From assembly GCA_038245905.1 (NCBI GenBank), contig JBBRRY010000001.1, positions 64,001 to 128,000 on the forward strand: a DNA stretch of 64,000 nucleotides. The letters are read 5' to 3'. Positions 514 to 51,064 of this stretch are shown here, piece by piece (position 1 is the first letter of the stretch; every line of letters starts with the position of its first letter). Below the pieces are notes generated by a model. That model did not search any database. It was not told where the DNA came from and worked only from the letters and a program-made list of their open reading frames with translations. The stretch comes from Thermoanaerobaculia bacterium. Lineage in GTDB: Bacteria > Acidobacteriota > Thermoanaerobaculia > UBA5066. Made by a program: the position numbers and the translations under genes.

Positions 514-604
514 GAAGATTTCTTTGAATGGTTAAGAGGGGAGCCGGGCCTGGCGTCTGGCCGCCTCTTTCTTCGCGCGCGCTCGGCGCCTTCAAGATTT
601 TTTC
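514..604. repeat. convergent motif pair A (reverse copy weak)
   Basis: fwd GAAGATTTCTTTGAATGG 514-531; rev about 589-604 reads GAAAAAATCTTGAAGG. Confidence 0.5.
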
Positions 605-1085
605 GATCCGGCGCGAGCGTTTCCGCTCGCCGCGTACGGGCAAGCCCCACGACTTCTACGTGCTCGACTGTCCCGACTGGGTGAACGTGATCGCGCTGAC
701 CGACCGGAACGAGGTGGTCCTGGTGCGGCAGTTTCGGGCCGGAACCCGCTCCGTCACTCTCGAGATCCCGGGGGGCGGCGTGGAGGCGCGCGACGGTTCG
801 GCCCTCGTCGCGGCCCGGCGCGAGCTGCGGGAGGAGACGGGACACGGGGCGCGACATTGGAAACGCCTCGGGGTCGTGCATCCGAACCCGGCTTTCCAGT
901 CGAACCGCTGCACCACCTACCTCGCTCGGGGTTGCCGGCGCGTGGGAGATCTCATCCCGGACGCCGGCGAAGACCTCGCCGTGGAATGCGTGCCGCTCGA
1001 GCAGATTCCGGGCCTGATCCGGAGAGGCCGCATCACGCACTCCCTCGTCATCGCCGCTTTCCATTTTCTTTCGCTTCGAAGTTGA
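528..1085 (+). CDS. NUDIX hydrolase (ADP-ribose pyrophosphatase-like)
   Basis: Nudix box EIPGGGVE...AARRELREETG. Confidence 0.9.
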   Translation: MVKRGAGPGVWPPLSSRALGAFKIFSIRRERFRSPRTGKPHDFYVLDCPDWVNVIALTDRNEVVLVRQFRAGTRSVTLEIPGGGVEARDGSALVAARRELREETGHGARHWKRLGVVHPNPAFQSNRCTTYLARGCRRVGDLIPDAGEDLAVECVPLEQIPGLIRRGRITHSLVIAAFHFLSLRS

Positions 1086-1173
1086 GGAGTCCCTATTCTC
1101 CTTTTCTAATCAATATTCTCCGAATCGCATAGTCTGCCCATTACGTCACGGGCTCGCGTCGGGCGGCTGTGCC

Positions 1174-1190
1174 CGGCACGAACCGTGAAA
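1174..1190 (+). promoter_or_regulatory. possible sigma54 (-24/-12) promoter, imperfect
   Basis: CGGCACG-AACC-GTGAA, with GA instead of GC at -12; about 50 nt upstream of a cluster encoding a sigma54-type activator. Confidence 0.25.
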
Positions 1191-1234
1191 TGCCTCTGGC
1201 GGGCGCGAACAAACACTCGCGCCGGGAGGTTCAC

Positions 1235-2758
1235 ATGGTCCGCCACTACGTCGCCCCGATCCTCAGGCTCCTCGCGTTCCTCGGCCTGCTCGCCTCGCCC
1301 CTCGTTCTCGCGGTGATCGCCCGCGCCGAGGAGTCTGATGCAAGGTCCCTTGTGGCTCTCCGATCGGTCATCCTCGGCGAGACGCCGGCCGACCGGTCCG
1401 GACGCGGCGGGCGAGTCGCCGCGAGCGCGCCCGCGACGCTCCTCGAGCGCAGTGGCGGCCGTGTCCTCGTGGCCGCGCCCTCCCGTGGTTCCTCGGCCCA
1501 GGCGCGCGGCTGGGCCGACTCCTCGGCCTTCTTCGTCCTCGACGATCCGTTGGAGCCGATCGAGCGTCTCCTTGGGAACGCGCGACTTCTCCTCGATGCG
1601 AACGACCGGCCGGTCCTTGCGGCCGCCTACCTGCACGAAGTCACGCGGCGCGACGCCTCGCGCGTCGAGGGCTGGGAGCTCCTGGGCCAAGCGGGCGAGC
1701 TGCTCGCGCAGTCGGCCCGTCCCGGCGAGGACGGGCGCCCGCCGGCTTCCGTGGTGCTCGCGGGAGCGTGGGGGATCACGCTCGTACCGAAAGGCGACGG
1801 CACCGGCTACCGATATGACGGCACGGCCTATCGGCGCCTGATCGCGCTCGCGCCTCCGGCCGAGGCGGCCGAGCGGGCCCGCGTGCGGCTCCTCCTGGCC
1901 TGCGGCCCCGTCGTGGATCCCGAGCGGCCGGGTGATGTCGCGACCGCCGTGCTCCGCGAGCGGGATCTCGGCGAGTTCCTCTCCTCGTTCCCGTCGTCGG
2001 CGCGCCGCGTGCCGTTCCTGCTCGAGCGCGCGCGGCTCCTGTCCTGGCTGGCGGAAGGTGCCGCCCGCCGAGGGGACCTCGAGGTGTTTGCCGGTTACCG
2101 CGACGGGGCGATCGAGGCCGCCTCGGAGGTTGCGGCCACGACGCCAGACCTGTCGCGCCGCCGCGCTGCCGACCGTCTCGTCGCGAGGCTCACGAAATCG
2201 TTGCCCCGAAAGGTCGTCTCGGATAAGCCTGTCGTTTCCGCATCGGGAATGCGCGCGCAGTTCGTGGCGAAGGGCGGCGTGACGCTGCTCGTCGTCTCGC
2301 GCCCGGACGGCAAGGACGCGATCCAGCCGTACACGGTCGTTGGCGCGGACCCGGCGAGCCTCGCCTTCGACACGGCAGGCCGGAAACTCGTCTGGGACGA
2401 GGCGCCCACCGCCGGCCGGCGAAGGACGCGGCTCCTGGATCTCGTGCGCGCGAGCGTCGTGGAACCGGCGGCCTCCGCGGAGCCCGAGCTCCTGTCGGCC
2501 GGGACGGCAACGGCCTCGAGCGGGCCGCTGCGGGGCGAAGACCGCTACACGACGTCCCTCGGCTTCTCGCCGGACGGACGCCTGCTCCTCGTCGTCTGCG
2601 AGGGATTCACGCCCGACGGCATCCGGATCCCGAAGCGGCACGTTCTCTGCGACACGGACGGCGGTCGCCGGCCGGTCCTCGTCGACCGCCCGTACTCGGC
2701 GCCGGGTGTCGTGGACTGGAATCGGCTCCAGCATGCGACCGAACGGCTGAGCGGATAA
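1235..2758 (+). CDS. exported hypothetical protein (helical N-half, beta-rich/propeller-like C-half)
   Basis: GGAGG RBS before ATG 1235; hydrophobic signal peptide; C-terminal LAFDTAGRKL and GFSPDGRLL repeats. Confidence 0.6.
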   Translation: MVRHYVAPILRLLAFLGLLASPLVLAVIARAEESDARSLVALRSVILGETPADRSGRGGRVAASAPATLLERSGGRVLVAAPSRGSSAQARGWADSSAFFVLDDPLEPIERLLGNARLLLDANDRPVLAAAYLHEVTRRDASRVEGWELLGQAGELLAQSARPGEDGRPPASVVLAGAWGITLVPKGDGTGYRYDGTAYRRLIALAPPAEAAERARVRLLLACGPVVDPERPGDVATAVLRERDLGEFLSSFPSSARRVPFLLERARLLSWLAEGAARRGDLEVFAGYRDGAIEAASEVAATTPDLSRRRAADRLVARLTKSLPRKVVSDKPVVSASGMRAQFVAKGGVTLLVVSRPDGKDAIQPYTVVGADPASLAFDTAGRKLVWDEAPTAGRRRTRLLDLVRASVVEPAASAEPELLSAGTATASSGPLRGEDRYTTSLGFSPDGRLLLVVCEGFTPDGIRIPKRHVLCDTDGGRRPVLVDRPYSAPGVVDWNRLQHATERLSG

Positions 2759-2767
2759 TCGCGGGCG

Positions 2768-3241
2768 ATGACGAATTCCCGTCCAAACATGGAAGACCGG
2801 AGGCTGCGGAGGAAATCCGCAGCCTTCCGGTTGAAGCACGACGTTGGGAAGGCGCTCCGCTGGAGCGCGCCTGAGGCTCAGGAGACGAACGCGGAAGAGC
2901 TGTGCGCCCGGCTGACGCGGGATCTGCTCTCGAGTGCGAGCGGTGGCGGAGCGAGTCGTGACGTTCTGGAAAGTTTCTTAGAGTGGAAGAGGGAAGAGGG
3001 GCCGATATTCGCAAGCGATGATCCCGACCTGGAAACGGTCGAGCGGGCCATGGCGGCGGTGAGCCGCCTCGTCCCAAGTCTTCTTACTTTCAAAGAATCC
3101 GAAAGCAAATCCTTCCTTCTTTCTCTCGACGAGGCCTGTCTCGAGGCGTCGCGAGCCTGCACGGCGTTCTACCGGCGCATTGCCGTCGAGGACGGCCCCG
3201 AGATCGTGAGGCGGCGCGGCGAGCTTGCTGGTGACGCGTGA
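2768..3241 (+). CDS. small helical hypothetical protein with H-box-like LKHDVGK motif
   Basis: 157-aa ORF, stop overlaps next start (GTGA); His motif resembles a DHp H-box. Confidence 0.55.
   Translation: MTNSRPNMEDRRLRRKSAAFRLKHDVGKALRWSAPEAQETNAEELCARLTRDLLSSASGGGASRDVLESFLEWKREEGPIFASDDPDLETVERAMAAVSRLVPSLLTFKESESKSFLLSLDEACLEASRACTAFYRRIAVEDGPEIVRRRGELAGDA
2969..3100. repeat. convergent motif pair B
   Basis: fwd GAAAGTTTCTTAGAGTGG 2969-2986; rev 3086-3100 reads GGATTCTTTGAAAGT. Confidence 0.7.
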
Positions 3242-4884
3242 AGGGCGGCCCGCGGGTCCTTGTCGTCGACGACCAGCCGAAGACCGCCGATTTTCTCCGC
3301 CGCCACGCGCCGGATCTCGTCCTCATCGGCCCGTCCGCGGAAAAGCCCTGGGCGGGAAGCTGGGTCGAGGCCGAGGCGGCGATGACGCGCGCCGGAAAGC
3401 TCCCCGATCTCGTCGTGCTCGATCTTCGATTCGACATCCCGGACGAGGAGCTTCTGCCCGACCGGCGGCCGCTCGGCGAGACGGCGGCGGGGAAGCGCGA
3501 CCGGCGGGACCGGCGGGACCGGCAGGGTCTTTTCATCCTCGAGCGCCTGCGCCGCCGCGAGCCCGACCTTCCGGTCCTTCTCACGACCGCGCACGAGGAA
3601 ATTCCCTTCGAGGACGAGGCCCGGCGGCTGCGCGCCGACGCCTTCACGTACACGGTCGGAGAGGACGAGGCGACGGGAGAGGGCCTCGTGCGGCTCGTGC
3701 GCCGCGTGCTCGACGAGCGCGAGTCGCCGCTTTCGACGGGGCGGTTCTTCTGGGGCCGCAGCGCCGCCATGCGCGACCTGCGCCGCCGGATCGCTTCTCT
3801 CGCGCCCACTCCTCTTCCGCTCCTCCTCACGGGGCCGACCGGCTCTGGCAAAAACTTTCTCGTTAAGGAAGTCATCCACCCGCTTTCGTCCCGCAAGGGC
3901 CCGCTCGTCTCCTTCGATTGCGCGACCGTGCCTGAGACGCTCCTTCAGGCGGCGCTCTTCGGCTCGGTGCGCGGCGCGTACACGGGCTCGGTCGCGGATC
4001 GGCCGGGGGTCTTCGAGGCGGCGGCGGGAGGCACACTCTTCATCGACGAGATCGAGAACCTCTCCGGCGATGCGCAGAAGGCTCTCCTGACGGCACTGAA
4101 CGACGGCGTCGTGAGGCGCGTGGGGGCGACGGCGGCTGTGCCCCACACGGCGCGCATCGTGGCGGCCTCCAACATGGACCTCAAGAAGCGCGTGACGGAA
4201 GGTCTCTTCCGGGCGGATCTCCTCATGCGGCTCAACCCGGCGCTCGCCCTGGAGCTGCCGCCGCTCGCGACGCGGCGCGAGGACCTCGAGGATCTCGCGG
4301 ACGACTTCGCCGCGGCGTTCTTCGAGGACCCGGCGAATCGGCTGGAGATCGCGGCGCAGATGCGCGCCGCGGGAGGATCCGAGCCGGACCGGACGGACAC
4401 GTTCGAGCTCGCGCGCGGCGACGACGAGGTGGCGCGCAGCCGGGCGCCCGTGGTATTCGCGCTTCCTCGCAAGGGATGGCAGGCGATCGCGCGCCACCCG
4501 TGGCCCGGCAACGTGCGGCAGTTCGCGATGGTCCTCGCGGACCTGCTCGCGGCCACTCTGTACGGCCGCACGGCCGCCGCGAAGGACCGGAGCGGCCGCG
4601 TCGTGTTCTCGATCGACCCGCGCCTCCTGTTCGATCTCCTGGCCGAGGCCCGTCAGGAGGACGCGCCCGCCGCCGTTGACTCCTTCGTGCTCGCGCGGCC
4701 CCGGGTGGGAAGCGTCGAGGAGTTCCGACGCGAGCTCGAGCGTTCCGCGTTTCGCCAGATCTTCCACGAGTGCGAGGGAGACTTCGCTCGAATGGCGGAG
4801 AGAATGACCGGCTCGGCCGCGAACGAACGAGCCGTGCGCCTGCGATTCAACAAGCTGGGCCTCTCGGCGCGGCGCGAGGCGTGA
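3238..4884 (+). CDS. sigma54-interacting AAA+ transcriptional regulator with atypical REC domain
   Basis: VLVVDD REC start; Walker A GPTGSGK; GAYTGS loop; GGTLFIDEI; FRADL; WPGNVRQ. Confidence 0.88.
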   Translation: MKGGPRVLVVDDQPKTADFLRRHAPDLVLIGPSAEKPWAGSWVEAEAAMTRAGKLPDLVVLDLRFDIPDEELLPDRRPLGETAAGKRDRRDRRDRQGLFILERLRRREPDLPVLLTTAHEEIPFEDEARRLRADAFTYTVGEDEATGEGLVRLVRRVLDERESPLSTGRFFWGRSAAMRDLRRRIASLAPTPLPLLLTGPTGSGKNFLVKEVIHPLSSRKGPLVSFDCATVPETLLQAALFGSVRGAYTGSVADRPGVFEAAAGGTLFIDEIENLSGDAQKALLTALNDGVVRRVGATAAVPHTARIVAASNMDLKKRVTEGLFRADLLMRLNPALALELPPLATRREDLEDLADDFAAAFFEDPANRLEIAAQMRAAGGSEPDRTDTFELARGDDEVARSRAPVVFALPRKGWQAIARHPWPGNVRQFAMVLADLLAATLYGRTAAAKDRSGRVVFSIDPRLLFDLLAEARQEDAPAAVDSFVLARPRVGSVEEFRRELERSAFRQIFHECEGDFARMAERMTGSAANERAVRLRFNKLGLSARREA

Positions 4885-4886
4885 GC

Positions 4887-7337
4887 ATGTGGCAGGCAAT
4901 CCTGCCGCTCGTTCCATTCCTCCTGGCCACTGGCACCGCGACCTCGCCGGAGCCGTGCGACGACGCATTCTCGTCGCGAGACCTCGTCCGCCGGGCGCGG
5001 CTTGAGTCCCCCTCGCTTCCACTCGTGCTCCGGGGGGCGGACTTCGCGGCAGCCGCGGGAGATACGGACGACGAAGCCCGCCTTCTCGAGATCGCCGCGA
5101 AGGAAGCCCCCGAGCTCCTCTCGGCGGTGGATCGCCTCGTGCTGGCGCGGCAAGCGGAAGCGCGCGGGGACCGACGCGGCGCGATCCTCCAGTACGGGCA
5201 CGTGCTGACGGCGTTGCAGCGGCGCGGACTCGCCGGCGCGGAATGGGTGGGGGAGTCCATACGCCGGCTCGATGCCGAGGACGAGGCTCGGAAGCTCCCG
5301 GCCAGGCCCGGCTTCGCGCCTCCCTCCGCGGAAGCACGGCGCGCGTTTTCCGAGGGGAAGGCTGGACTCCGGCGCGGCACGAACACGTCCAACGCTTCCG
5401 CCCGCGAGGCCTTCAAGACGGCGCTCCGGATCTCACCGGGCTACTCGGAGGCCGCCCTCGCGCTCGGAAGCGTCGAGGAACGGGACGGGCGCACGGCCGA
5501 GGCCGCCGCCGCGTACCGGACGGCCCTGGCCGCCGACCCGGACGGCTTCGAGGCGCTCACGGCGCTCGCGAATCTGCTCTGGAACGAACCGGATCGCGCT
5601 GCCAAGGAAGAATCCCTGGCGCTGCTCGACCGCGCGCTGGCGCTACGGCCGGACCTCTTGCGCCTCCACCGCGAGGCCGCAAACCGGTGGGCGGCGTGGG
5701 GTGATCCGGCCCGTGCGCTCGAGCGTCTCGACGCCTGGTGGCCGCTTGCCTCCCCGGAGGAACGGACGGCGGCCGCCCCCTTTCGCGAACGCTTGCGCGC
5801 GCGGCTGGCACGGACGTTCGGCCCCGAGCCGGCCGATCTCGGGTCGGATCCCGCGTCACCGGCCGTCGGCGCCTTTCGCCTCGCTCAGGTCTATGCAGGC
5901 CGCCCGGCGGAGCGGGACTGGGATGCCGCGGAAGGCGAGCTGCTCGAGGCCGAGCGCCTCGATGCGCGGTTCGTGCCGGCGCTCGAGCTTCGCGCGGCCC
6001 TTCGCGAACGGAAGGGCGACCTCCCGGGCGCGGAGGACGTCCTCCGGCGCGCGGTTGCGGTGGACCCGTCGCGAACGCCCGCGTGGGAGCGCCTCGCCGA
6101 GCTCCTCGGCCGCCAGCCGCGGCGCGCGGAGGACGCCGAGGCGGCCTGGGAGCACGCGGAGCAGGCGGGCTCCCGCGAGGCGCTTTTCGCCCTGGCCCGG
6201 ATCGCATCGGGGCAAGGGCGCACCCTCCGCGCCGCGGCGCTCTATCGGCGCTACGTTTCGGAAGCCGCCGGCGGCGTGCATGCCGAGGAGGCGCGCGCGG
6301 CCCTCGAGCGCGAGGAGCGGCGGCAGCAGACGCTTCGGGGCGCGGGATTCGGGGCCGCGCTGTTCGCGCTGCTCGCGGGAGGCCTCTCCTGGGCGCGGAG
6401 ACGCTCGGGGCTCACGCTCGACGAATGGCTGAGGCGCGACCCGGGCGCCACGCACGACGCGCGGTCCCTTGCGGGCCGGCTTTCACACGAAGCGTTCAAG
6501 CACGGAGGGCTGCTCCTCGGCGAAGCGGTCGAGCGGCTGGACACGCCGGGTGGCCTCGCCGAGGCCGCTCCTCTGCTCCTCGAGCGCTTGTACGGGAGCG
6601 GCGCCACGCCGGGGCTCGTCGACGAGGCGCGAACGGCGCTGGCCGAGATCGAAGCGCTGGCCCGCCGCCGGGGCGCGCGCCTGAACCTGCGCTTCAAGGA
6701 TCCGCTTCTCTCTCCGGTGTTCCGCGCGCTCGACGGTCTCACCCGGGTAGAGCGCGCCTTCGTGCGGCTCGCGGAGACCGGCTTGCTGCCGGCCCGGCGG
6801 ATGGAATCCCTGGCGCGGACGCTCCGCTCGGCGGCCGCGGCTCTGAGCCCGCGCACGGCGCAAAGGCTGACGGCGGGTCTCGACGCGGCGGGCTCCACGG
6901 AAGTCCGGTTCGACCGTCTCGAGGCGCTTCTCGCGAGCGTCGCGCGCGAACGCGATTCTCCGCCGCCCCCCCTTGCGGGCCTCGGTCTGTTCGCGCCGGG
7001 AGGCGGGGGGAGCGTGCGGGTGCGCGTGCCCGAGGGAGACTGGGTCACGCTTTGGCGGAATCTTTTCGCGAACGCGCTCACGGCTCCGCGCCTCGCCCTT
7101 CTCGCCGAGGAGAGGCGGGATCCCGTGACGGGGCAGGCGCTCGCGCGATTCGTGCTTTTCGACGGCGACCCCCGCGTCCTGACGGCGGAGATGATCCGCG
7201 GCCGCGGCGCCGAGAGGGGGCTCGGCGTCGTCGCGGACCTCGTGAGGAAGTGGGACGGCCTCGTGGACGTAACGCCGGGTACGGGTGAGTTCACGAAGGG
7301 CGTGACGCTCGAGTTTGCGTCGGTCGAGGAGCCCTAA
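4887..7337 (+). CDS. TPR-repeat membrane protein with degenerate histidine-kinase module
   Basis: signal peptide, many TPR-like repeats, one TM helix, then LSHEAFKH, LWRNLFANAL, FDGD, RGLGVVADLVRKWDG. Confidence 0.7.
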   Translation: MWQAILPLVPFLLATGTATSPEPCDDAFSSRDLVRRARLESPSLPLVLRGADFAAAAGDTDDEARLLEIAAKEAPELLSAVDRLVLARQAEARGDRRGAILQYGHVLTALQRRGLAGAEWVGESIRRLDAEDEARKLPARPGFAPPSAEARRAFSEGKAGLRRGTNTSNASAREAFKTALRISPGYSEAALALGSVEERDGRTAEAAAAYRTALAADPDGFEALTALANLLWNEPDRAAKEESLALLDRALALRPDLLRLHREAANRWAAWGDPARALERLDAWWPLASPEERTAAAPFRERLRARLARTFGPEPADLGSDPASPAVGAFRLAQVYAGRPAERDWDAAEGELLEAERLDARFVPALELRAALRERKGDLPGAEDVLRRAVAVDPSRTPAWERLAELLGRQPRRAEDAEAAWEHAEQAGSREALFALARIASGQGRTLRAAALYRRYVSEAAGGVHAEEARAALEREERRQQTLRGAGFGAALFALLAGGLSWARRRSGLTLDEWLRRDPGATHDARSLAGRLSHEAFKHGGLLLGEAVERLDTPGGLAEAAPLLLERLYGSGATPGLVDEARTALAEIEALARRRGARLNLRFKDPLLSPVFRALDGLTRVERAFVRLAETGLLPARRMESLARTLRSAAAALSPRTAQRLTAGLDAAGSTEVRFDRLEALLASVARERDSPPPPLAGLGLFAPGGGGSVRVRVPEGDWVTLWRNLFANALTAPRLALLAEERRDPVTGQALARFVLFDGDPRVLTAEMIRGRGAERGLGVVADLVRKWDGLVDVTPGTGEFTKGVTLEFASVEEP

Positions 7338-8902: not shown

Positions 8903-9544
8903 ATGACGGAGCGCGCCCCGCCGAGCCTATTGTCCCTCGAAATTCCGGGCCCGGCGGGCTCGCTGGAGGCCCTCCTCCGCATTCCGGCGGCCCCGGCCGG
9001 AGCCGCGCTCGTCGCGCATCCGCATCCGAGCCACGGCGGCACGATGCACACGAAGGTCGTGCATCGGGCGGCCCGTCTCCTCTCGGAACGGTTCCGCCTG
9101 GAAGCGCTCCGGTTCAACTTCCGGGGAGTCGGGGCGTCGGCGGGGGAGTACGACGGCGGAGCCGGCGAGACGGAGGATGTCGTCGCGGCCGCCGCATGGC
9201 TCCGCGCGCGCCTCCCGAACGGGCCGTTCGTGCTCGCCGGCTTCTCGTTCGGCTCGCTCTGCGTTTTACGTGCGGCGACTCGCGTGGCTCCGCAAGTCCT
9301 GCTTCTGATCGGCGTTCCGATCGACAGGTGGGACGCCGCGGGGGAGGTTCCGCCGGCGACGCGCGTCGTGTGGATTCAGGGCGAGAACGACGAATTCAGC
9401 GCGGCCGCGCGTGCTGGCGAGATCGCCGCAGCACGCGGATGGACGTTTCGCGTCGTACCCGGTGCGGACCACTTCTTCTCCGAACGACTCGATGAGTTCG
9501 AGAGCGCGGCGACGGATGCCCTCGCTGAAGGGCTTTCGGGATGA
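8903..9544 (+). CDS. alpha/beta hydrolase
   Basis: HPHP..GGTM, RFNFRGVG, GFSFG nucleophile elbow, GADHFF. Confidence 0.88.
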   Translation: MTERAPPSLLSLEIPGPAGSLEALLRIPAAPAGAALVAHPHPSHGGTMHTKVVHRAARLLSERFRLEALRFNFRGVGASAGEYDGGAGETEDVVAAAAWLRARLPNGPFVLAGFSFGSLCVLRAATRVAPQVLLLIGVPIDRWDAAGEVPPATRVVWIQGENDEFSAAARAGEIAAARGWTFRVVPGADHFFSERLDEFESAATDALAEGLSG

Positions 9545-10083
9545 TGGCTTCGGAGGAGGAAAGAGAGATTCTTAGAAAGGTCGCCCGGGATGCGGCGGCC
9601 CGCGCGATGGGGCAGCGGCCTGTGGCACTGCCGGAAATCCCTGAGGGAAGCACCCTCCTTCAGCCGGCGCCCGTGTTCGTCACGTGGAGAAGAGACGGGC
9701 GCCTGCGGGGCCGGAGCGGAACGACGGCACCCGACGCCGCACTCCTCGCCCTGGTGACGAAGCACGCCGTCGACGCTCTCTTGCACGACCCGCGCGTCCC
9801 CCCTGCGACGGCGACGGAGCTCCCGCGTCTCGTGCCCGAGATCAGCATCCTCTCGCCCTTCGAAGAAATCTTCGGGGCCGAAGGCCTCCTTGCCGGTATT
9901 CACGGCGTCCTCGTGGAGAAGGGAAAACGCCGTGGCGTCCTCTTGCCGCAGGACGCCACGGGCTTCGCCTGGGGCGGCGCGCAAATGCTGTCGCAGGCCT
10001 GCCTCAGAGCGGGACTTCCGGAGGAGAGCTGGCAGGCTCCGGGCCGCCCGCGTCTCCTCCGGTTCACCGCAGACGTGTTCTGA
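9541..10083 (+). CDS. AMMECR1 / AmmeMemoRadiSam protein A family
   Basis: VFVTW..GRLRG, DPR.PP, EISILSP, HGV...GVLLPQ. Confidence 0.85.
   Translation: MMASEEEREILRKVARDAAARAMGQRPVALPEIPEGSTLLQPAPVFVTWRRDGRLRGRSGTTAPDAALLALVTKHAVDALLHDPRVPPATATELPRLVPEISILSPFEEIFGAEGLLAGIHGVLVEKGKRRGVLLPQDATGFAWGGAQMLSQACLRAGLPEESWQAPGRPRLLRFTADVF
9565..9873. repeat. convergent motif pair C
   Basis: fwd GAGATTCTTAGAAAGG 9565-9580; rev 9857-9873 reads GAAGATTTCTTCGAAGG. Confidence 0.75.
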
Positions 10084-10088
10084 AGGGA

Positions 10089-10823
10089 CTACTTCTCGAT
10101 CGAGAGGAGCTCGACGTCGAACACGAGAGTCGCACCACCCTTGATCCGCGGTGCGCGCCCCTCGTCGCCGTACGCGAGGTCGGACGGGCAGACGAGACGC
10201 GCCTTCCCGCCTTCCTTCATGAGCTGAAGGCCCTGGGTCCAGCACGGGATGACGCCGGTCACCGCGAAGGTCACGGGCTCGCCGCGCTCGATGGAGCTGT
10301 CGAAGACGGTTCCGTCGATGAGCGCGCCGCGGTAGTGCACCTTGACCTTGTCCGTTGCCTTCGGGGCCGCGCCCGTGCCAGCCTTCACTTCCTTGTAGAC
10401 GAAGCCGGTCGGCTGCCTGACGGCGCCAGGCTGGGCGGCCTCCTTCGCAATGAAGGCCGCGCCGGCCTTCTTTTCGCCGACGGAAGCCGCACCGAGGCGG
10501 CCCTTCGCGAACTCCTGCAGCTTCGGGCCGTATATCGCGAGATCGACCTTCGGGGGGCGACCGAGGACGCCGTCCGTGATGCCCTCCTGCACGGAGGCCA
10601 GCTCTGCGGCGGTCAGCTTGAGCGGACCAAGGTTCTGGCTCATCACGAGACCGATCGCGTAGAGCGTCTTGCCGCTCTCGGTGGCGGGGCGCGCGCCCGG
10701 CGCCCTGGCGGAGGCGGCTTTTGTGGCGGCCGGCTTGACGGGATCGGCCTTCGCGGCTTCCTCGGCGAAAGCGGGAACCGCGGTGGACAGAAGAAGGGCG
10801 GAGGCGATGAGCGTTCGCCGCAT
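10089..10823 (-). CDS. FKBP-type peptidyl-prolyl isomerase, exported
   Basis: VKVHYRG.LIDGTVFDSS, VIPCWTQGL, LAYG; signal peptide. Confidence 0.93.
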   Translation of the reverse strand: MRRTLIASALLLSTAVPAFAEEAAKADPVKPAATKAASARAPGARPATESGKTLYAIGLVMSQNLGPLKLTAAELASVQEGITDGVLGRPPKVDLAIYGPKLQEFAKGRLGAASVGEKKAGAAFIAKEAAQPGAVRQPTGFVYKEVKAGTGAAPKATDKVKVHYRGALIDGTVFDSSIERGEPVTFAVTGVIPCWTQGLQLMKEGGKARLVCPSDLAYGDEGRAPRIKGGATLVFDVELLSIEK

Positions 10824-10885
10824 GGGATGAGATCCTCGCTTTTCGTTTGATGACGGCCCGAAGGGCGCGGCCGAAGAAGGGGATT

Positions 10886-11782: not shown

Positions 11783-11834
11783 GACCTCCCGAGAATACCG
11801 TCCCGGCCCGCGCCCGTGCTCTAATCCGCGCCGC

Positions 11835-36362: not shown

Positions 36363-36367
36363 GACCG

Positions 36368-41898: not shown

Positions 41899-41939
41899 GC
41901 GGCAGGATACCGGCGGCCCCACGGGTTAGCATCCGTTTC

Positions 41940-43827: not shown

Positions 43828-44253
43828 ATGCCGGCACGTACCGCCAGCGCCGTCTGGACCGGAGACCTCAAGAGCGGAAAGGGCACGATGAAGCTCGGGA
43901 GCGGAGCCTGGGAAGGCGCGTTCTCGTTCCAGTCGCGGTTCGAGGAAGGGACCGGGACGAATCCGGAGGAGCTCGCGGGAGCCGCCCACGCAGGCTGCTT
44001 CTCGATGGCGTTCTCGAACGAGCTCTCCAAGGCGGGTTTCGTCCCGACGCGCGTCGCGACGACCGCAAAGGTCCACCTCGAAAAGGGCGAGGCGGGGTTC
44101 GCGATCTCGCGGATCGACCTCGCCTGCGAAGCGCAGGTCCCGGGGATCGACAACGCGAAGTTCCAGGAGGTCGCCGCGGCCGCCAAGAAGGGCTGCCCGA
44201 TCTCGAAGCTCTTCACGGGGGCCCAGATCAACCTCGAGGCGAAGCTGGGTTAG
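43828..44253 (+). CDS. osmC: OsmC peroxiredoxin
   Basis: TNPEEL..AAHAGCFSMA, CPISK; AAGGAG RBS. Confidence 0.92.
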   Translation: MPARTASAVWTGDLKSGKGTMKLGSGAWEGAFSFQSRFEEGTGTNPEELAGAAHAGCFSMAFSNELSKAGFVPTRVATTAKVHLEKGEAGFAISRIDLACEAQVPGIDNAKFQEVAAAAKKGCPISKLFTGAQINLEAKLG

Positions 44254-44260: not shown

Positions 44261-44405
44261 GAAGATTCCTAGAAGGTGAAGAGAGCAGGGGAGGGCGCCG
44301 AAACAATCGGCGCCTTCCGTGCGTACGGGGACCAAACGACTGATCAACAGGAGGCCCGAATGATGAAAGCGCGCCGCAGTATTCTTACCTTCGCAGGAAT
44401 TCTTT
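44261..44405. repeat. convergent motif pair H
   Basis: fwd GAAGATTCCTAGAAGG 44261-44276 (intergenic); rev 44388-44405 reads AAAGAATTCCTGCGAAGG. Confidence 0.68.
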
Positions 44406-44977: not shown

Positions 44978-46702
44978 TCAGAGCCTCTTCAGGGCCTCGA
45001 GCGCCGGCTCGAGCGCTTGCCGCCGCCTGAAGAAGTCGGCCCATGGGTCGCTCTTCTGCAGGCGCGCGGCGAAGTTCCCGATCGTGAAGTCCTCGGCCTG
45101 GAGCGACGGCTTCACCTCGCTCCACGCGAGCGGCGTCGAGACGGGCGCGTGGGGGCGGCGCCTCACGGAGTAGGGCGAAACGACGGTCTGCCCGAACGCG
45201 TTCCGGAAGGAGTCGAGGAAGACGCGCCCCTTGCGGGCCGCGACGCGCATCTCCATCGTCAGGTTCTTCGGCCAGGCCGCCGCGAGACGCGTCCCGAGCG
45301 TCTTCGCGAACCACGTGACCTCCTCGGTGCCGGGGCCGCGCACGATCGGGACGAAGACGTGGAGACCCTTGCCTCCGGAGGTCTTCACATACGAGACGAG
45401 CTCGAGGGCGTCGAGCGCCTGCTTGACCTTCAGGGCGGCGGCCACGGCGTCGGCGATCAGGCCCGAGTCCGGGTCGAGGTCGAAGCAGACCCAGTCGGGC
45501 TTGTCGAGCTCGTCGGCGCGGCTGCCCCAGACGTGAACGGCGATGCACCCGAGGTTCGCGAGCGCGAGCTGCGTCTCGAGCGCCCCGCCCACGACCGTGT
45601 TCGTCACCTTCCGGTCCTTGCCGTGCCGCACGACCACCGTCGGAGTGCCGGGAGGCATGCTGGAGGGCTTCTCTTTCTGGTAGAAGCACTCGCCGCCGAG
45701 CCCGTCCGGGCAGCGCTCGAGGGAGAGCGGCCGGTCCTCGACCCACGGCCTCAGTTTGCCGAACACGTCCGCGTAGAACGCGACGAGATCGCCCTTCGTC
45801 CACCCTTCCTCGGGCCAGAAGACCTTGCGGGCGTTGGAGACAGGGACCGGGAAGACGGGGGAAGAAGAGGAAGATTTCTTAGAAGGTGAAGAGGGGAGGG
45901 GAGCCGCGGGTGCGCGCGTCGACTTCGGGCCACGCGCCGCCGCCGCTTTTCTTCCTTTCAAAGAAATCTTCTCTTCGTGCTCTTCGGACCGGGCCCCGCG
46001 GGGCCGCGAGTGCCAGACCGCGGGCTTCGCCCGCTGCGTGCGCTGGAGGAGCTTCGGGTTTGCGAGGAGCTTCTCGACCTCGGCGACGGGATCGCCCGTC
46101 GAGGCCTTCTCGACGTCGCCGCCCTCGTCGATCGCGATCTGGGTCAGGAGCCGATTTGAGACGACGGAGCGCGGGCGCGTCTCGGCCACGTCCTCGTCGG
46201 ACGCGAAGTCGTCGCGGTGCTTGATGAGGAGCCACGAGGGCTTCGACGAGCCGCCCCAGCCCTTCGTACGGACGAGGACCCAGGACCCCTTCAGCTTCTC
46301 GCCGTGGAGCGTGAACTTGAGATCTCCCTTCTTTAGCGCGGCGTCGACGTCAGGTGACTCCGGTGTCCAGGTGCCGCGATCCCAGACCATGACCGTCCCG
46401 CCGCCGTATTCGGCGACGGGGATGATCCCCTCGAAGGCGGCGTACTCCTGGGGGTGGTCCTCGACGTGGGAGGCCATGCGCTTGACGGCGGGATCGAGCG
46501 ACGGTCCCTTCGGTATGGCCCACGAGAGGAGCACTCCGTTCCACTCGAGTCGGAAGTCGTAGTGGAGGGCCGTCGCCCGGTGCTTCTGGACGACGTAGGC
46601 GAGAACCCGGCGCGCCGCGCGGCGCTTCGCGGGTGTCTTCGCGCCCGCGGGCTCCTTCGTCACGCCAAAGCGGCGTTTCCGGCGATATTCCTCGAGGGCC
46701 AT
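44978..46702 (-). CDS. LigD 3'-phosphoesterase + polymerase/primase fusion (no ligase domain)
   Basis: QKHRATALHYDFRLE, SWAIPKGPS; CFDLDP, KTSGGKGLH, VSPYSVR. Confidence 0.88.
   Translation of the reverse strand: MALEEYRRKRRFGVTKEPAGAKTPAKRRAARRVLAYVVQKHRATALHYDFRLEWNGVLLSWAIPKGPSLDPAVKRMASHVEDHPQEYAAFEGIIPVAEYGGGTVMVWDRGTWTPESPDVDAALKKGDLKFTLHGEKLKGSWVLVRTKGWGGSSKPSWLLIKHRDDFASDEDVAETRPRSVVSNRLLTQIAIDEGGDVEKASTGDPVAEVEKLLANPKLLQRTQRAKPAVWHSRPRGARSEEHEEKISLKGRKAAAARGPKSTRAPAAPLPSSPSKKSSSSSPVFPVPVSNARKVFWPEEGWTKGDLVAFYADVFGKLRPWVEDRPLSLERCPDGLGGECFYQKEKPSSMPPGTPTVVVRHGKDRKVTNTVVGGALETQLALANLGCIAVHVWGSRADELDKPDWVCFDLDPDSGLIADAVAAALKVKQALDALELVSYVKTSGGKGLHVFVPIVRGPGTEEVTWFAKTLGTRLAAAWPKNLTMEMRVAARKGRVFLDSFRNAFGQTVVSPYSVRRRPHAPVSTPLAWSEVKPSLQAEDFTIGNFAARLQKSDPWADFFRRRQALEPALEALKRL
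45870..45971. repeat. convergent motif pair I
   Basis: fwd GAAGATTTCTTAGAAGG 45870-45886; rev 45954-45971 reads GAAGATTTCTTTGAAAGG. Confidence 0.88.
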
Positions 46703-46752
46703 CGCCGCGACGATACGGGGCGGAGCGTCCGGATTCCAGCGTTGGCCGCGCG

Positions 46753-47706
46753 TCAGACCGCCGGGGTGGTCTGCCAGCGCGTGCTGCGATCCCAGAGATC
46801 CGACTCGAGGTCCTCCGCCTCCGAGTGAAACTCCTGCCCTGTCCCCTCGGTCAGGAAGCGGCCGAGGCTCTTGATGACGCTGGGCTCGCGCAGGATGCGG
46901 CGGTGCCCGAGCCCCGACGTGGCGTGGAGGCGCGAGCCGGGCCACGAGCGCAGGATCTCCTCCGCATCGGCAAACGGGACTTCGGCGTCGTCGCGATCGT
47001 GCACGACGAGGGCGGGGATGTGCCCGAGCGAGGAGACCGCCCTCCCGATATTCGCCTCGGCCCAGCGGAATGCGAACTTGCGCTCGATCCGGGCCATCGT
47101 CGCGGCGCGTCTGACGTCGTCGAATCCCACGATGTCAAGGAACCAGCGGAAGAAGTCGGTCGGGTCCGCTGCCGCCCCGATGAGGACGACGCGCTCGGCC
47201 GGCGCGCCTCCGGTGCACGCGATCACCGTTGCGGCGCCGCCGAGGGAGTGTCCGACGATCGCCCGAACCCGGCCCTCACGGCGGGCCAGCACGTCGATCA
47301 GTGCCGCGAATTCGAGCAGATCCGATCGTTTGCCCTGACTGCGACCGTGGCCGGGAGCGTCCCAGGTCAGGACCGAGAACCCCGCGGAGACGAAGGGCTC
47401 AACGAAGGCCGTAAGCTGCCCGCCTCGGCCCGACCAGCCATGGGCGAGGAGGATCGTCGGGCCATGGCCCCAGCGCCAGATTGCGATGCGCTTGCTACGG
47501 AACTCGATCCACTCGCGGGCCCCGGTCCTCAGGACCGCACGCTCCCGGGCAGGTGGGCGGCGCCGTGCGGGCGTGAAGAAAAGACGCTCTGCGGCCCGGG
47601 AAGCCAGCGCAGGGCTGACCGCCCCGAGGAGGCGAACCGACGGGATCAGGAGCCGTCGGGAAAGGGGAGCGGGTCGTCGCGATGGGGGGGCGATGGTGTG
47701 CGACAA
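46753..47706 (-). CDS. alpha/beta hydrolase
   Basis: HGWSG, DAPGHG, GHSLG, HDRDD, GLGH. Confidence 0.88.
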   Translation of the reverse strand: MSHTIAPPSRRPAPLSRRLLIPSVRLLGAVSPALASRAAERLFFTPARRRPPARERAVLRTGAREWIEFRSKRIAIWRWGHGPTILLAHGWSGRGGQLTAFVEPFVSAGFSVLTWDAPGHGRSQGKRSDLLEFAALIDVLARREGRVRAIVGHSLGGAATVIACTGGAPAERVVLIGAAADPTDFFRWFLDIVGFDDVRRAATMARIERKFAFRWAEANIGRAVSSLGHIPALVVHDRDDAEVPFADAEEILRSWPGSRLHATSGLGHRRILREPSVIKSLGRFLTEGTGQEFHSEAEDLESDLWDRSTRWQTTPAV

Positions 47707-47721: not shown

Positions 47722-48321
47722 TCAGGCCTGTGGAACCCTCGCGGCCATTACGAGATTCTCGAAAGCGGCTCGGGCGCGGTGGCCCGCGTCCGGGTCTCCG
47801 AGGAGACGATGGGAGAAAAAACACGAAAGCATGACGCCGTAGAGGTCCTGTGCGAACTGTTCAGGCTCGACCTCCGCGCGGAAGTGCCCCTCAGCGACAG
47901 CGGCTCGAACCACGTTGGCAAGCAGCGCGAGCCACTGCCGCTGTTGCGCGACGAGATGCTCGCGGGCGGCTCCGGGTTGATCGTCGAGCTCCGCGGCCGC
48001 CGCCACGAAGAGACAGCCCCCGGGCATGCCGCTCTTCTTCGGCCAGTCCATCCAGAGCCGGAAAGCGGCGCGGATACGTGGCTCTCCGCGGGGAGCTGCG
48101 AGCGCCGGCCGGATCACAAGGTCCGCAAAGCGGACAGCGGCGTGCTCCAGCGTCTGGATCTGGAGCGACTCCTTGGACCGGAAATGGGCAAAGACGCCGC
48201 TCTTCGAGAGAGCCGTCTCCTCGGCGAGACGTCCGATCGTGAGCCCGTCCAGGCCCACTGTGCTCGCGAGCGAAACGGAGTGGTCCAGGATCGCCTGCCG
48301 CGTGACGTCTCCCTTACTCAT
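47722..48321 (-). CDS. TetR/AcrR family regulator
   Basis: LTIGRLA....SKSGVFAHF.SKE HTH. Confidence 0.92.
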   Translation of the reverse strand: MSKGDVTRQAILDHSVSLASTVGLDGLTIGRLAEETALSKSGVFAHFRSKESLQIQTLEHAAVRFADLVIRPALAAPRGEPRIRAAFRLWMDWPKKSGMPGGCLFVAAAAELDDQPGAAREHLVAQQRQWLALLANVVRAAVAEGHFRAEVEPEQFAQDLYGVMLSCFFSHRLLGDPDAGHRARAAFENLVMAARVPQA

Positions 48322-48327
48322 TGCAGA

Positions 48328-48356
48328 ATAATAGTACGATCGTTCGTCTCTGTCAA
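48328..48356 (-). promoter_or_regulatory. sigma70 promoter of tetR with internal palindromic operator
   Basis: TTGACA-17 nt-TATTAT on minus strand, 6 nt before ATG; dyad GTACGATCGTTC at 48334-48345. Confidence 0.75.
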
Positions 48357-48430
48357 GGCGGCGCGGACACGCCCGAGAGAACGTCGGGAAGAGGACCCGA
48401 TCCGCTTAAACTTCGGTACTTTCCCCTGAG

Positions 48431-51064
48431 ATGAGGAGCGCCATGAATCTCGCCACTCGTGTCCTCGCGACCCTCCTGTCTATCGCGCCCGCTCTCGCGC
48501 ACTCAGCCTCGCCGCCCACTCCCTCGGAGTTTCTCGGGATCAAGGTAGGCGCTGATCGGACGCTCGCGGACTACCGGCAGATCTCGTCTTACTTTCGCGA
48601 GCTCGAGAAGGCCTCGCCGCGCGTGAAGATCCAGAACCTCGGAAAGACGACGCTCGGGGAGGACATGCTTCTCGCCGTCATCACCAGCGAGGAGAACCAG
48701 CGAAACCTCCCGCGGCTTCAGGAGATCTCGCGCAAGCTTTCCGATCCGCGCGGGCTCTCGGATTCCGATGTCGCCGCCCTCACGAATGAGGGCAAGGTCG
48801 TCCTCCTCGTGACGTGCAACATCCACGCGAGCGAGATCGGCTCAACGCAGATGGCGATGGAGTGGGCGCACGCGCTGGCGACGTCGGACGACCAGGAGAC
48901 GAAGCGTCGCCTCGCGAACGTGGTGGTCCTCCTCCTGCCGTCCCTGAATCCCGACGGCCAGATCATGGAGACCGACTGGTATCGCAAGAACCTCGGAACG
49001 AAATACGAAGGGGGCCGGCTTCCCTGGCTGTACCACCACTACGTCGGGCACGACAACAACCGCGACTGGTACATGCTGACGCAGAAAGAGACGAAGGCCC
49101 TCAACCGGGCCGTGTACAAGGAGTGGCTCCCCCAGGTGTGGCTCGACGAGCACCAGATGGGAATCAACGGGCCGCGCATCTTCATGCCGCCCTATGCCGA
49201 ACCGGTCTCGTCCGACGTGCACCCCCTCGTTTGGCGCGACGTCAACCTGATCGGCGCGGCGATGGCTCTCCGGCTCGAACAGAGGGAGAAGTCGGGAGTC
49301 ATCTACGGCTATTCCTTCGACGCCTACTGGCCCGGCGGCACGAAGAACACGGGCTGGTGGAAAAACATCGCGGGACTTCTCACCGAAGTCGCGTCCGTGC
49401 GGCTGGCGTCCCCGGTTTACCTTCCGCTTGGCGAGCTCGCGGGGGGTCGGAAGGGCCTCATCGACTACCGCGCGCAGACGAATTTCCCGAACCCCTGGCC
49501 GGGCGGCTGGTGGCGGCTTCGCGACATCATGGATTACGAACGAATCGCCTCGGACGCGATCCTCGAGACCTGTGCAGACCGCCGCGAAGACTTCCTGAAG
49601 GACATGGCGACGCGGGCCCGCGCGAGCATCGCGGCCTTCCGTCCGGACGACGCCTACCGCATCCCGATGGGGCAAGGTCAGCGGGATCCGGCGACCGCCC
49701 TGGTTCTCGCCCGGATCATGGGCGAGCACGGAGTCGACGTGAGGTCCGGCCCGAACGGGGACGCGTTCATTCCCCTCGCACAGCCCTACGGAAAATTCGT
49801 ACGGGAGATGATGGAACCGCAGCGGTATCCCGAAGTGAAGCTGGTAGCCGGGAAGGACATTGTTCGTCCCTATGACGTCGCCACGTGGACGCTGCCCGCG
49901 ATGATGGGCGTGAGGGTCGAGCGCGCGACGCTGCCGGCCGGACTGACCGAATTCGATCCAGCAGGCGGAGGAGGAAGAGGAAAAGAGGGAGAGATTCTGA
50001 GAAGGGGGGCGCCGGCCGCCGCACTTCTCCCGGGAAGTCCCGAGAACGCAAAGGTCGTGAACGCAGCGTTGAAAGCGGGCGCCGTGGTCTCGATTCTGCG
50101 AGCGCCCGCGCCCTTCGAGGGCAGGGACTGGCCCGCGGGAACGATCATTCTCGGAAAATCCGCGCTCGATTCCGCGGAGGCGTCCCTCGTCGCGACGCGC
50201 GTCCCCCTCTTTCCTTTCAAAGAAATCCCCTCTTCTCCCTCTCTCTCTCGCCTGCGCGCCCCGCGCGTCGGCCTCTACAAGTCGTTTACGTCTTCCATGG
50301 ACGAGGGGTGGACGCGCTGGCTCCTCGAGCAATACGGCTTCGCGCCGGTTTCGCTCGAGAACAAGGCCGTTCGTGCGGGTTCCCTGGCTGAGAGGTTCGA
50401 CGTCATCGTCCTTCCGGACATGGAGGCCGAGGTCATCGCGACCGGCCGCCCGCGTCGCGAGGAAGGGGAGTCCCGCTACATCCCGGAGCTTCCGCCGGGA
50501 TACCAGGGAGGCCTCGAGAAGGAGGGCGCGAAGGCCCTGCGGGACTTCGTCGAGGCAGGGGGGACGCTCGTCGCGTTCGACTCCGCGACGGACTACGTCG
50601 CGAGCGAATTCTCGATTCCCGTCCGAAACACGCTCGCGCGCGCCAAGCGCGAGGAGTTTTTCTGCCCGGGTTCTCTCCTGCGCGTCCACGTGGACGCGTT
50701 GCACCCCGTGACATGGGGTCTGCCTTCCGAGGTGGCTGTGTTCCTGGACGACGCGACCGCCTTGCAAACGTCGCTTCCGGGAGCCGAGCTCGAGAGGTGG
50801 GTTCTCGCGTCTTACCCGGACGACGAGCGCGACGTACTCGTCTCCGGCTGGATTCATGGCGGAGACCGCCTCACGCGGCGCGCGGCGGCGGTCGCGACGA
50901 CGTTCGGCAAGGGGAAGCTCGTGCTCCTCGGCTTCCGGCCGCAGCACCGTGCCCAGACACACGCGACGTTCCCGTTTCTCTTCAATGCACTCTACTGGTC
51001 GGTCGAGGGACCGCCTCCCGGCGCGAAAAAAGACGGCGTGAAAGCTTCACCCGGAAGGGGGTGA
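48431..51064 (+). CDS. M14 zinc carboxypeptidase family protein, exported
   Basis: IHASE, NPDG, GHDNNRD, DEHQMG; C-terminal GATase-like domain. Confidence 0.88.
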   Translation: MRSAMNLATRVLATLLSIAPALAHSASPPTPSEFLGIKVGADRTLADYRQISSYFRELEKASPRVKIQNLGKTTLGEDMLLAVITSEENQRNLPRLQEISRKLSDPRGLSDSDVAALTNEGKVVLLVTCNIHASEIGSTQMAMEWAHALATSDDQETKRRLANVVVLLLPSLNPDGQIMETDWYRKNLGTKYEGGRLPWLYHHYVGHDNNRDWYMLTQKETKALNRAVYKEWLPQVWLDEHQMGINGPRIFMPPYAEPVSSDVHPLVWRDVNLIGAAMALRLEQREKSGVIYGYSFDAYWPGGTKNTGWWKNIAGLLTEVASVRLASPVYLPLGELAGGRKGLIDYRAQTNFPNPWPGGWWRLRDIMDYERIASDAILETCADRREDFLKDMATRARASIAAFRPDDAYRIPMGQGQRDPATALVLARIMGEHGVDVRSGPNGDAFIPLAQPYGKFVREMMEPQRYPEVKLVAGKDIVRPYDVATWTLPAMMGVRVERATLPAGLTEFDPAGGGGRGKEGEILRRGAPAAALLPGSPENAKVVNAALKAGAVVSILRAPAPFEGRDWPAGTIILGKSALDSAEASLVATRVPLFPFKEIPSSPSLSRLRAPRVGLYKSFTSSMDEGWTRWLLEQYGFAPVSLENKAVRAGSLAERFDVIVLPDMEAEVIATGRPRREEGESRYIPELPPGYQGGLEKEGAKALRDFVEAGGTLVAFDSATDYVASEFSIPVRNTLARAKREEFFCPGSLLRVHVDALHPVTWGLPSEVAVFLDDATALQTSLPGAELERWVLASYPDDERDVLVSGWIHGGDRLTRRAAAVATTFGKGKLVLLGFRPQHRAQTHATFPFLFNALYWSVEGPPPGAKKDGVKASPGRG
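49991..50229. repeat. convergent motif pair J
   Basis: fwd GAGATTCTGAGAAGG 49991-50005; rev 50213-50229 reads GGGATTTCTTTGAAAGG. Confidence 0.8.

Follow-up and report, generated by a model that had tools for sequence, protein, structure and literature searches.

REP, BIME and REPIN elements consist of two short, inverted, conserved sequences on either side of a less conserved spacer, span about 100 bp, and are present in hundreds of copies. REPINs are extragenic, each REP forms a stable hairpin, and the Y1 transposase RAYT is encoded in the genome. The parS, Noc, SlmA and matS sites number from tens to about a hundred, are often located in genes, and are conserved between orthologues; each is a single, symmetric palindrome of 13–16 bp. 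Rickettsia palindromic elements (RPE), as described in a review (PMC10969869), are short palindromic repeats found in frame within unrelated coding genes of one genus, at surface or linker positions. Uptake sequences (USS/DUS) number about 765–1,892 per genome (excerpts of PMC2817400). The DNA analyzed here is a stretch of 64,000 nucleotides (to be referred to as the window) from a Thermoanaerobaculia bacterium of the lineage UBA5066 (GenBank assembly GCA_038245905.1, contig JBBRRY010000001.1, positions 64,001–128,000). It contains a dispersed motif, the copies of which (to be referred to as arms) face each other in pairs. The element is the pair of arms, and not the DNA between them. The geometry is that of transposon terminal inverted repeats, and the enclosed DNA is pre-existing, being an intergenic spacer, a linker, a 5′ untranslated region (5′UTR) with a start codon, or a part of an enzyme domain. 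The arms are best explained as conserved, paired recognition sites for a putative binding protein, with an origin and anatomy like those of transposon ends, a reading to which we assign a probability of roughly 0.4.

Abundance, orientation and anatomy of the arms

The G+C content of the window is 64–73%, and the motif is AT-rich. The 17-mer GAAGATTTCTTWGAAGG, with up to 3 mismatches, has 10 matches in the window, compared to 0.08 expected from dinucleotide-preserving shuffles, and none of 100 window shuffles attains this number. The whole assembly that holds the window (G000; 3,797,265 bp in 113 contigs, 67.8% G+C, 96.4% complete) has 202 such matches, divided 102 to 100 between the strands. 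With a half-site profile trained on 107 close matches, 109, 178, 263 and 395 half-sites are found in G000 at E values of up to 0.01, 0.1, 1 and 10, respectively, and 15 matches are in the window at E ≤ 10. Further weak arms in the window (2969/3092, 41391, 44261/44384, and 49998) are recognizable only through their retention in orthologues, and with these the window holds roughly 20 copies. An earlier reading of the window, made from the letters alone (the sequence-only reading), had counted more than 20 copies in this GC-rich DNA, and the recurrence is indeed far above chance.

The sequence-only reading had also noted that the motif is read in different frames, had placed the constraint on the nucleic acid, and had proposed codon-preserving shuffles as a check. 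Among 958 long open reading frames (ORFs), there are 74 matches with up to 3 mismatches and 39 with up to 2, compared to 7–19 and 1–5 in 12 synonymous-codon shuffles that preserve each protein sequence and the codon usage; the motif is 5–14 times commoner than in these shuffles. The centre of the 5′ arm is at codon positions 0, 1 and 2 in 10, 10 and 11 cases, and the arms are written into genes in all three frames with rare codons. The constraint is therefore on the DNA and not on the protein, because the motif is read in every frame and exceeds its frequency in the synonymous-codon shuffles.

The orientation of the arms is strict. Adjacent profile matches in G000 that are no more than 400 bp apart are convergent in 86 cases, divergent in 6, and tandem in 19. 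For the 263 half-sites with E ≤ 1, a partner on the reverse strand within 450 bp is located inward for 164 and outward for 11. In other genomes, 117 loci (866 kb) contain 89 convergent, 6 divergent and 15 tandem neighbors (28, 0 and 4 at E ≤ 0.01). The order of a forward copy followed by a reverse copy, described as invariable in the sequence-only reading, is thus the rule well beyond the window. After removal of nested alternatives, G000 has 100 pairs, with spacings of 40–438 bp (mostly 80–150 bp) and no 3-bp periodicity. In the two-contig assembly of another genome (G011), 49 core matches are forward and 83 reverse, and the better-matching arm seems to switch strand along the chromosome. This pattern hints at a difference between the two arms that is tied to the direction of genes or of replication.

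Each arm is a module of 30–50 bp. It begins on the outside with the terminus (C)GTCCGAAGAG, continues through a polypurine run that varies in length to the core GATTTCTTWGAAGG, and ends on the inside with GTRAAGAGGGG. In the aligned half-sites, the purine-rich run is followed by GAAGATTTCTTWGAAGG and then by TGAAGAGGGG, and the purine share is 70–90% on both sides of a short TTTCTT block. The internal palindrome of the core is merely TTC-N3-GAA, with asymmetric flanks.

This anatomy is also seen in the intergenic unit at site 514. On the left side of the full unit are CGTCCGAAGAGCAC, a (GAAGAG)n run, GATTTCTTWGAAKG, and GTWAAGAGGG, followed by a variable middle; the right side is the mirror image and ends with GGTGCTCTTCGGACG. 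The outer termini, CGTCCGAAGAGCAC and GTGCTCTTCGGACG, are well defined, and defined ends are also found at the LigD site (see below). The full units identify the arms as terminal inverted repeats of 45–55 bp with a defined outer end. They are present in 5 of 12 genomes (G003, G011, G014, G018 and G038), while G007 has an empty site. In G000 the right arm is deleted, and the window retains the left arm (500–545, + strand; terminus CGTCCGAAGAGCAC, polypurine, core 514–530; E = 2.9e-05). The reverse copy that the sequence-only reading had paired with it, near 590, consists of native codons of the NUDIX gene (FKIFS), and these are found in the element-free genome as well. A possible start ATG of the NUDIX hydrolase gene (528–1085) is located within the left arm (TTTGAATGG).

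Arms are also found in tandem (cores 11352 and 11394 in the window), with extra outer layers on both sides (LigD site in G008, G002, G038 and G039), and as one-armed remnants (G001 and G031 at the LigD site, G000 and G008 at site 514). The sequence-only reading had missed this resemblance to transposon terminal inverted repeats, which is seen in the terminus, the gain and loss of whole units, the remnants, and the tandem and nested copies.

The arms are confined to one genus. The 15-mer core, with up to 1 mismatch, has 48–216 matches per genome in all 18 sampled genomes of one uncultured Thermoanaerobaculia genus (29 genomes in the collection, G000 included), and 0–1 per genome in 12 genomes of seven other genera of the order. 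A control pattern, the core read backwards, has 0–1 matches in every genome of this test. A scan of one genome per bacterial or archaeal species with a 21-base version finds at least 117 stretches; among the 80 matches listed, 79 belong to metagenome-assembled genomes with the label Thermoanaerobaculia or Acidobacteriota, and the remaining one carries the label Aquifex.

Conservation of the arms and the DNA between them

At orthologous sites the arms are retained while the interiors diverge, which fits sites that are read by a protein. At the LigD site in 14 genomes, 14 of 196 positions of the left core depart from GATTTCTTAGAAGG, and the interiors, 62–101 bp in length, barely align. Three further sites were compared by mean pairwise column identity, a measure that is sensitive to gaps. 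The values are 0.75 and 0.78 for the arm cores and 0.64 for the coding interior in the metallo-beta-lactamase (MBL)-fold gene, 0.84 for the right arm and 0.61 for the interior in the lipocalin gene, and 0.79 for the left arm and 0.55 for the interior at site 2969. Two arms that adjoin polypurine indels have low column identity, 0.33 and 0.35. Overall, the arms are more conserved than the interiors at the six sites measured, and the motif is more frequent than in the synonymous-codon shuffles.

Similarity between the arms of one pair is no greater than that between arms of different pairs, at 6.44 in both comparisons (one-sided p = 0.50). Changes in one arm of the LigD site are not accompanied by compensating changes in the other, and G–U-compatible mismatches show no clear bias between sense (130) and antisense (105). 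The independent conservation of the arms argues for recognition of double-stranded DNA, and not for pairing of one arm to the other; the RNA or single-stranded DNA pairing put forward as an alternative in the sequence-only reading finds no support here.

The interiors have no conserved sequence in common. The 17 aligned units of G000 have only the arms in common. When 166 units of G000 and other genomes are compared, just 12 unit pairs have interiors that are similar while their flanks are not, and all of these are Ser/Thr-kinase paralogues or short GC-rich matches. The spacers are thus unrelated to each other and often code for ordinary protein, as had been described from the window. In a tandem array of kinase paralogues (G011:C1:2296001–2312500), the arm pair in each encodes LPE(D/E)F(L/F)EGEE and SFEEIPSSS and encloses the region of the alpha-C helix (RFEREA..LASLNHP). 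Kinases of this type host four of the 100 G000 pairs (C24:11450, C24:14194, C24:27685, and C25:29580).

The DNA between the arms is native in the four cases checked against orthologues. In the MBL-fold gene (40930–41922, − strand), the left arm (41355–41405, +) is placed by orthologue alignment and the right arm (41495–41525, −) has an E value of 0.003. Both arms are present in 14 of 15 genomes, and the 33-codon interior is the same in G017, which lacks both. As read from the alignment, the native strand FILAALP beside the left arm is replaced by VSLSCLP, with rare, pyrimidine-rich codons. In the gene for an M14-like peptidase (48410–51064, +), a weak left arm (49985–50015, +) codes for GKEGEILRRG, and the right arm (50205–50245, −; E = 0.003) codes for PLFPFKEIPSSPS. 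The arms are found in G000 and G008, and an interior of roughly 75 residues is present without arms in G002 and G019.

In the Lipocalin_5 gene, the left arm (30495–30535, +; 0 mismatches) codes for IEDEDFFEGTRGR, and the right arm (30630–30660, −; E = 0.67) codes for RIHFLREFFPS at the position of RPAWKIEESPT in outgroups, with the same length. The right arm has RIHFLREFFPSPSE in place of RPAWKIEESPTDAE, residue for residue. Both arms are present in 16 of 17 genomes of the genus, and the outgroups G056, G061 and G019 as well as two paralogues align straight through the interior. The arms take the place of loop codons, and the net change in length is about zero. G019 carries an unpublished flag, and the claims of native interiors that use it also rest on G002, or on G056 and G061. 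Among the lipocalin-like orthologues, a deletion in G033 removes the interior and the right arm, and there are in-gene stops in G008 (two TGA) and G037 (one TAA); the gene may be decaying in some species.

In the fourth case, the left arm (44261–44285, +; E = 1.7) is located just past an upstream stop codon (44251–44253), and the right arm (44384–44402, −; placed by alignment) falls on codons for the signal peptide of the gene downstream. Between them, the two arms enclose the 5′UTR, the ribosome-binding site and the start codon (44361) of this gene for a secreted protein.

A survey of the whole genome agrees with native interiors. For 43 of the 100 G000 pairs, both flanks have the same best coding frame, and there is no stop across the pair. 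A stricter coding-score filter passes 32 in-ORF pairs, which were placed on Pfam domains. At least 12 of the 32 have both arms inside one contiguous domain match, in GCV_T, HEM4, DUF2400, AMP-binding, His_biosynth, the PheT core domain, Acyltransferase, Methyltransf_28, ADH_zinc_N, RsmH (Methyltransf_5), Lactamase_B_2, and MFS_1. The matched stretch in these 12 pairs differs from the profile by −21 to +13 residues. As the arms are 24–54 residues apart, the interior must be domain sequence for the match to be so close to the profile in length. Three more pairs are partly within a domain (FG-GAP_3, HHH_6 of DnaE, and MnmE), three are in a domain that is 30–51 residues overlong (Mur_ligase_M, ATP-grasp_5, and NTP_transferase), six are in inter-domain linkers, and eight have no Pfam cover. 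The mean codon-usage score of 31 in-ORF interiors is 0.17, compared to 0.55 for real coding sequence of the same lengths and −0.51 for open non-coding frames, or about 64% of the way from the latter to the former. The host genes include dnaE, pheT, a Mur ligase gene, rsmH and mnmE, so the arms must be harmless in place.

The LigD unit (45860–45990) is in the linker between the phosphoesterase and primase-polymerase parts of an ORF (44978–47134, −). The left arm (45860–45900, +) has 0 mismatches, and the right arm (45945–45990, −) has 1 mismatch and the outer terminus GTGCTCTTCGGAC. Of 21 genomes, 15 have both arms, two have the left arm alone, and four have neither. Linker pairs of this type join, with no stop between, frames that are often separate genes: LigD phosphoesterase and primase-polymerase in the window (44978–47134, −), MeaB GTPase and Glyoxalase_4 (epimerase-like; G000:C25:42452–44029, −), and a solute-binding protein and a permease (G000:C2:70299–72392, −). 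The arms appear to bridge the neighboring frames in the LigD phosphoesterase–polymerase and MeaB–epimerase fusions, and may have helped to create all three.

Other arms and repeats

The weak left arm of the 2969 pair (GTTTCTTAGAGTGGAAGAGGGAAGAGGGG; 2960–3000, +) is in a coding region and is kept in all 12 aligned genomes. Its right arm (3085–3150, −) is followed by a polypyrimidine tract of variable length with a second motif, CCGAAAGCAAATC. This second short motif is seen in the outer polypurine or polypyrimidine flanks, as TTTGCTGAAGAG on one side and CTTCAGCAAA or CCGAAAGCAAATC on the other, and forms an inverted pair outside the main arms (3105–3150 in the window, and the LigD site in G008).

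A strong reverse arm (9857–9873, −; 1 mismatch, E = 0.0028) is located in an AMMECR1-domain gene (9541–10083, +), the domain of which covers residues 13–180 against 2–168 of the profile. The sequence-only reading had paired it with a forward copy at 9565, which is not detected by the profile. Two tandem left arms (11340–11425, +; cores 11352 and 11394) are in the linker of a SpoU-type methyltransferase gene (10886–12109, −), and their partner is a right arm at 11560–11610 (−; E = 0.24). In the gene for an AMP-binding enzyme, a weak arm (17806–17826, +; E = 0.31) is unpaired, and the partner proposed for it is absent. Two possible unpaired copies suggested earlier, at 18603 and 40817, are detected weakly (E = 4.5 and 4.8) and may be due to chance.

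A different type of repeat is found in G011. Four copies of a 1.56 kb insertion sequence of the IS110 family (PF01548, PF02371) are present within 14 kb (G011:C1:2197001–2211000), at about 1821–3410, 3810–5380, 9284–10850 and 12319–13165 of that stretch. Each copy interrupts, always at the same point, another repeat, a palindrome of roughly 60 bp (CCTAACAACGCGCTGCAGCGGAC...GATATCGTTAGG), which is found at least seven more times in the stretch. The insertion sequence holds one arm-like sequence, CCTTCTAAGAAATC, about 80 nt from its end, in a non-coding part.

Interpretation and comparison with known systems

If the arms are protein-recognition sites, each would be a double-stranded DNA site read on its own by a sequence-specific protein. 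The strict orientation, with the termini pointing outward, requires an agent with two-fold symmetry, and the reading protein would be a two-fold-symmetric complex that unites two inverted sites, which would account for the orientation. Such a complex may be derived from a transposase or a recombinase, or may be a nucleoid-associated protein. The pairs would have been installed by a process like that at transposon ends and then retained by purifying selection, and the neighboring codons may have been recoded toward polypurine or polypyrimidine. A further step, that a genus-specific complex of an undescribed system both reads inward-facing pairs of sites and installs them around DNA that was already there, such as the cores of genes for essential enzymes, is proposed tentatively and is somewhat doubtful. 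The sequence-only reading had already suggested oriented protein sites. The orientation rule and the retention of orthologous arms with diverging interiors speak for this part of the suggestion. On the other hand, rigid looping is not indicated, because the spacings lack the helical periodicity that the same reading had proposed as a check.

Several observations weigh against recognition by a protein. A consensus of 45–55 bp with a defined terminus resembles selfish mobile DNA and not evolved binding sites, and the gain and loss of whole units, the one-armed remnants, and the tandem and nested arms likewise look like mobile DNA. Copy number differs about four-fold among species of the genus, and about 100 of the 263 half-sites have no detected partner. 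The spacing of the G000 pairs is broad, with no 10.5-bp helical phase, and is ill suited to a rigid loop. Conservation was measured at only six sites, with alignments that are sensitive to gaps. No candidate for the binding protein is nominated. Finally, none of the schemes worked through explains how two arms came to be placed around native DNA at almost no change in length.

Many of these observations would be expected of selfish foldback or MITE-type elements (miniature inverted-repeat transposable elements), similar to RPE, of which whole units insert, only the copies tolerated in frame survive in genes, and there is no host function. The terminal-inverted-repeat anatomy with its defined outer termini, the whole-unit presence or absence at LigD (4 of 21 genomes empty, 2 one-armed) and at 514 (G007 empty), the tandem and nested arms, and the four-fold variation in copy number all agree with this explanation, as do the 43 of 100 pairs in an ORF that is open across the pair, the hairpin fold of the LigD unit (z = −3.0), the six linker pairs among the 32, and the three that add 30–51 residues to a domain. 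It is nonetheless unlikely. The interiors are native in the four orthologue-checked cases and in at least 12 of the 32 in-ORF pairs placed by Pfam, they are not shared among non-orthologous copies (kinase paralogues excepted), and the arms are kept while the interiors decay, a pattern that dead copies would not be expected to show. Inspection by eye of the sites with empty alleles, where the copies are old and the flanks of low complexity, revealed no target-site duplication. There is no Y1 transposase (PF01797) in G000, which is 96.4% complete, while control genomes were matched. The G000 assembly has no excess of convergent pairs at 500–5000 bp, and no multi-copy insertion sequence or repeats of that size. 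A full scan of G000 found no autonomous transposon with arm ends, and the sole insertion sequence seen, that of the IS110 family in G011, ends differently. When 2 mismatches are allowed, the 13-mer of the outer terminus is non-specific, with 291 matches compared to 250 for the reversed control. Molecular drive, in which a signal such as a DNA-uptake sequence is built into genes by substitution through preferential uptake or recombination of the DNA that carries it, would account for the genus-specific 'dialect', the excess over synonymous-codon shuffles, and the placement in coding regions, in all frames, in poorly conserved loops and with about zero change in length. Uptake sequences are located at poorly conserved residues (Findlay and Redfield 2009, excerpts of PMC2817400), and genes for ComEC and secretins are present. 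However, ComEC and secretins are common and do not discriminate, there are only about 200 half-sites in 3.8 Mb, and the strict convergent pairing at about 100 bp is not matched by uptake sequences within genes. A long consensus with a defined terminus also speaks against an uptake sequence, and presence or absence at orthologous M14 and MBL-fold sites is sharp, with no intermediate proto-sites. Uptake-driven origin is therefore improbable.

Elements that act in RNA, as a transcript stem between the arms, as mimics of the Shine–Dalgarno or anti-Shine–Dalgarno sequence, or as targets of small RNAs, are very improbable in view of the lack of within-pair similarity beyond the consensus, of compensation at LigD, and of a clear G–U bias (above). 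The arms form the closing helix in predicted minimum-energy folds, but folds of gene-internal pairs are no better than those of shuffles (z = +0.7 and −0.16). No Rfam family is found in the window, and there is no terminator-like site at the arms. The 44261 pair encloses a ribosome-binding site and a start codon; overall, 15 of 100 pairs contain a start codon, compared to 9.1% of controls, a weak excess. A stretch of the forward arm, AGAAGGTGA, matches the Shine–Dalgarno sequence AGGAGGTGA at 8 of 9 positions, and the reverse arm TCACCTTCTAAG resembles the 3′ end of the 16S rRNA of the genus, TCACCTCCTTTCTAAG. This rRNA ends in ...GGATCACCTCCTTTCTAAGGGATC (G008 L287 920–960; G003 L288 1495–1515, minus strand), and the reverse arm TCACCTTCTAAGAAATC resembles that end if a 4-nt gap is allowed. 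These likenesses may be a coincidence between sequences of low complexity. The least probable of the explanations weighed here is that the arms are recombinase sites and that the enclosed DNA is inverted or excised. The imperfect palindrome TTC-N3-GAA with asymmetric flanks, in inverted sites, is reminiscent of shufflon and hix sites, invertons within genes have been described (Chanin et al., excerpts of PMC10028968), and the LigD interior of G000 aligns better when flipped in two comparisons (G014 and G038). However, alignment of the LigD interiors is better overall in the same orientation (14.5 compared to 5.0), with the flipped one better in 10 of 91 comparisons, and every orthologous interior checked is in the coding orientation. 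The flipped form has a stop in 16 of 32 pairs, compared to 42% of controls, so its frame is not kept open. On/off inversion or excision is also unlikely because the hosts include dnaE, pheT, a Mur ligase gene, rsmH and mnmE; for the first four, switching off would be lethal.

If the arms have a function, about a hundred conserved, strictly oriented pairs per genome would constitute a new DNA-reading system in a widespread, uncultured lineage of Acidobacteriota. Should a complex that both installs and reads the pairs exist, 'interior-less' pairs of transposon ends would serve as conserved chromosomal marks, a prokaryotic counterpart in geometry of convergent small-loop or protected-segment pairs. 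If the arms are selfish, they would be the first repeat family known to us in which the inverted ends alone are the element, around native coding sequence; the ends would lie within conserved domains encoded by, for example, dnaE and pheT, an arrangement that no standard transposition scheme yields. On either reading, the arms show the extent to which protein loops tolerate foreign, AT-rich sequence with rare codons. For annotators, the arms offer a ready genus marker and give rise to false 'low-complexity' segments in peptides. A search for inverted repeats in Thermoanaerobaculia found no published account of the arm pairs.

The arms were also considered as a classical MITE, RPE or REPIN, and this assignment was rejected on the basis of the native interiors, the lack of an autonomous partner and of RAYT, and the arms that outlast their interiors. 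Like RPE, the arms are in unrelated genes, are tolerated in frame, and are restricted to a genus. In RPE, however, the entire unit of about 150 bp is the element, and its conserved interior encodes a conserved peptide, while here conservation is limited to the arms, many of the interiors are native, and the arms are read in three frames. MITEs such as Correia, ERIC and BOX also have terminal inverted repeats, a length of 100–200 bp, many dispersed non-coding copies, and gain and loss between relatives. In comparison, no conserved interior, target-site duplication or autonomous partner was seen for the arms, which enclose native coding DNA and outlast it. The likeness to REPINs is in the short, inverted, conserved sequences that flank a less conserved spacer, and the differences are in the absence of a PF01797 match, the many copies in genes, and a palindrome limited to TTC-N3-GAA.

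Uptake sequences are similar in being lineage-specific motifs in coding regions, at poorly conserved residues and with little cost to the protein (excerpts of PMC2817400). They have cores of 9–12 bp and are single within genes, whereas the arms are modules of 30–50 bp, with about 200 half-sites in obligate convergent pairs. Intragenic invertons share the inverted repeats that flank a coding segment within a gene (excerpts of PMC10028968); the arms differ in the flipped frame, which is not kept open, in the essential hosts, and in the single motif common to about 100 loci. The sites of nucleoid proteins are comparable in number, in their location within genes, and in the orthologous conservation that the arms also show. 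In contrast to these sites, the arms are asymmetric, carry polypurine tracts, and are arranged in convergent pairs.

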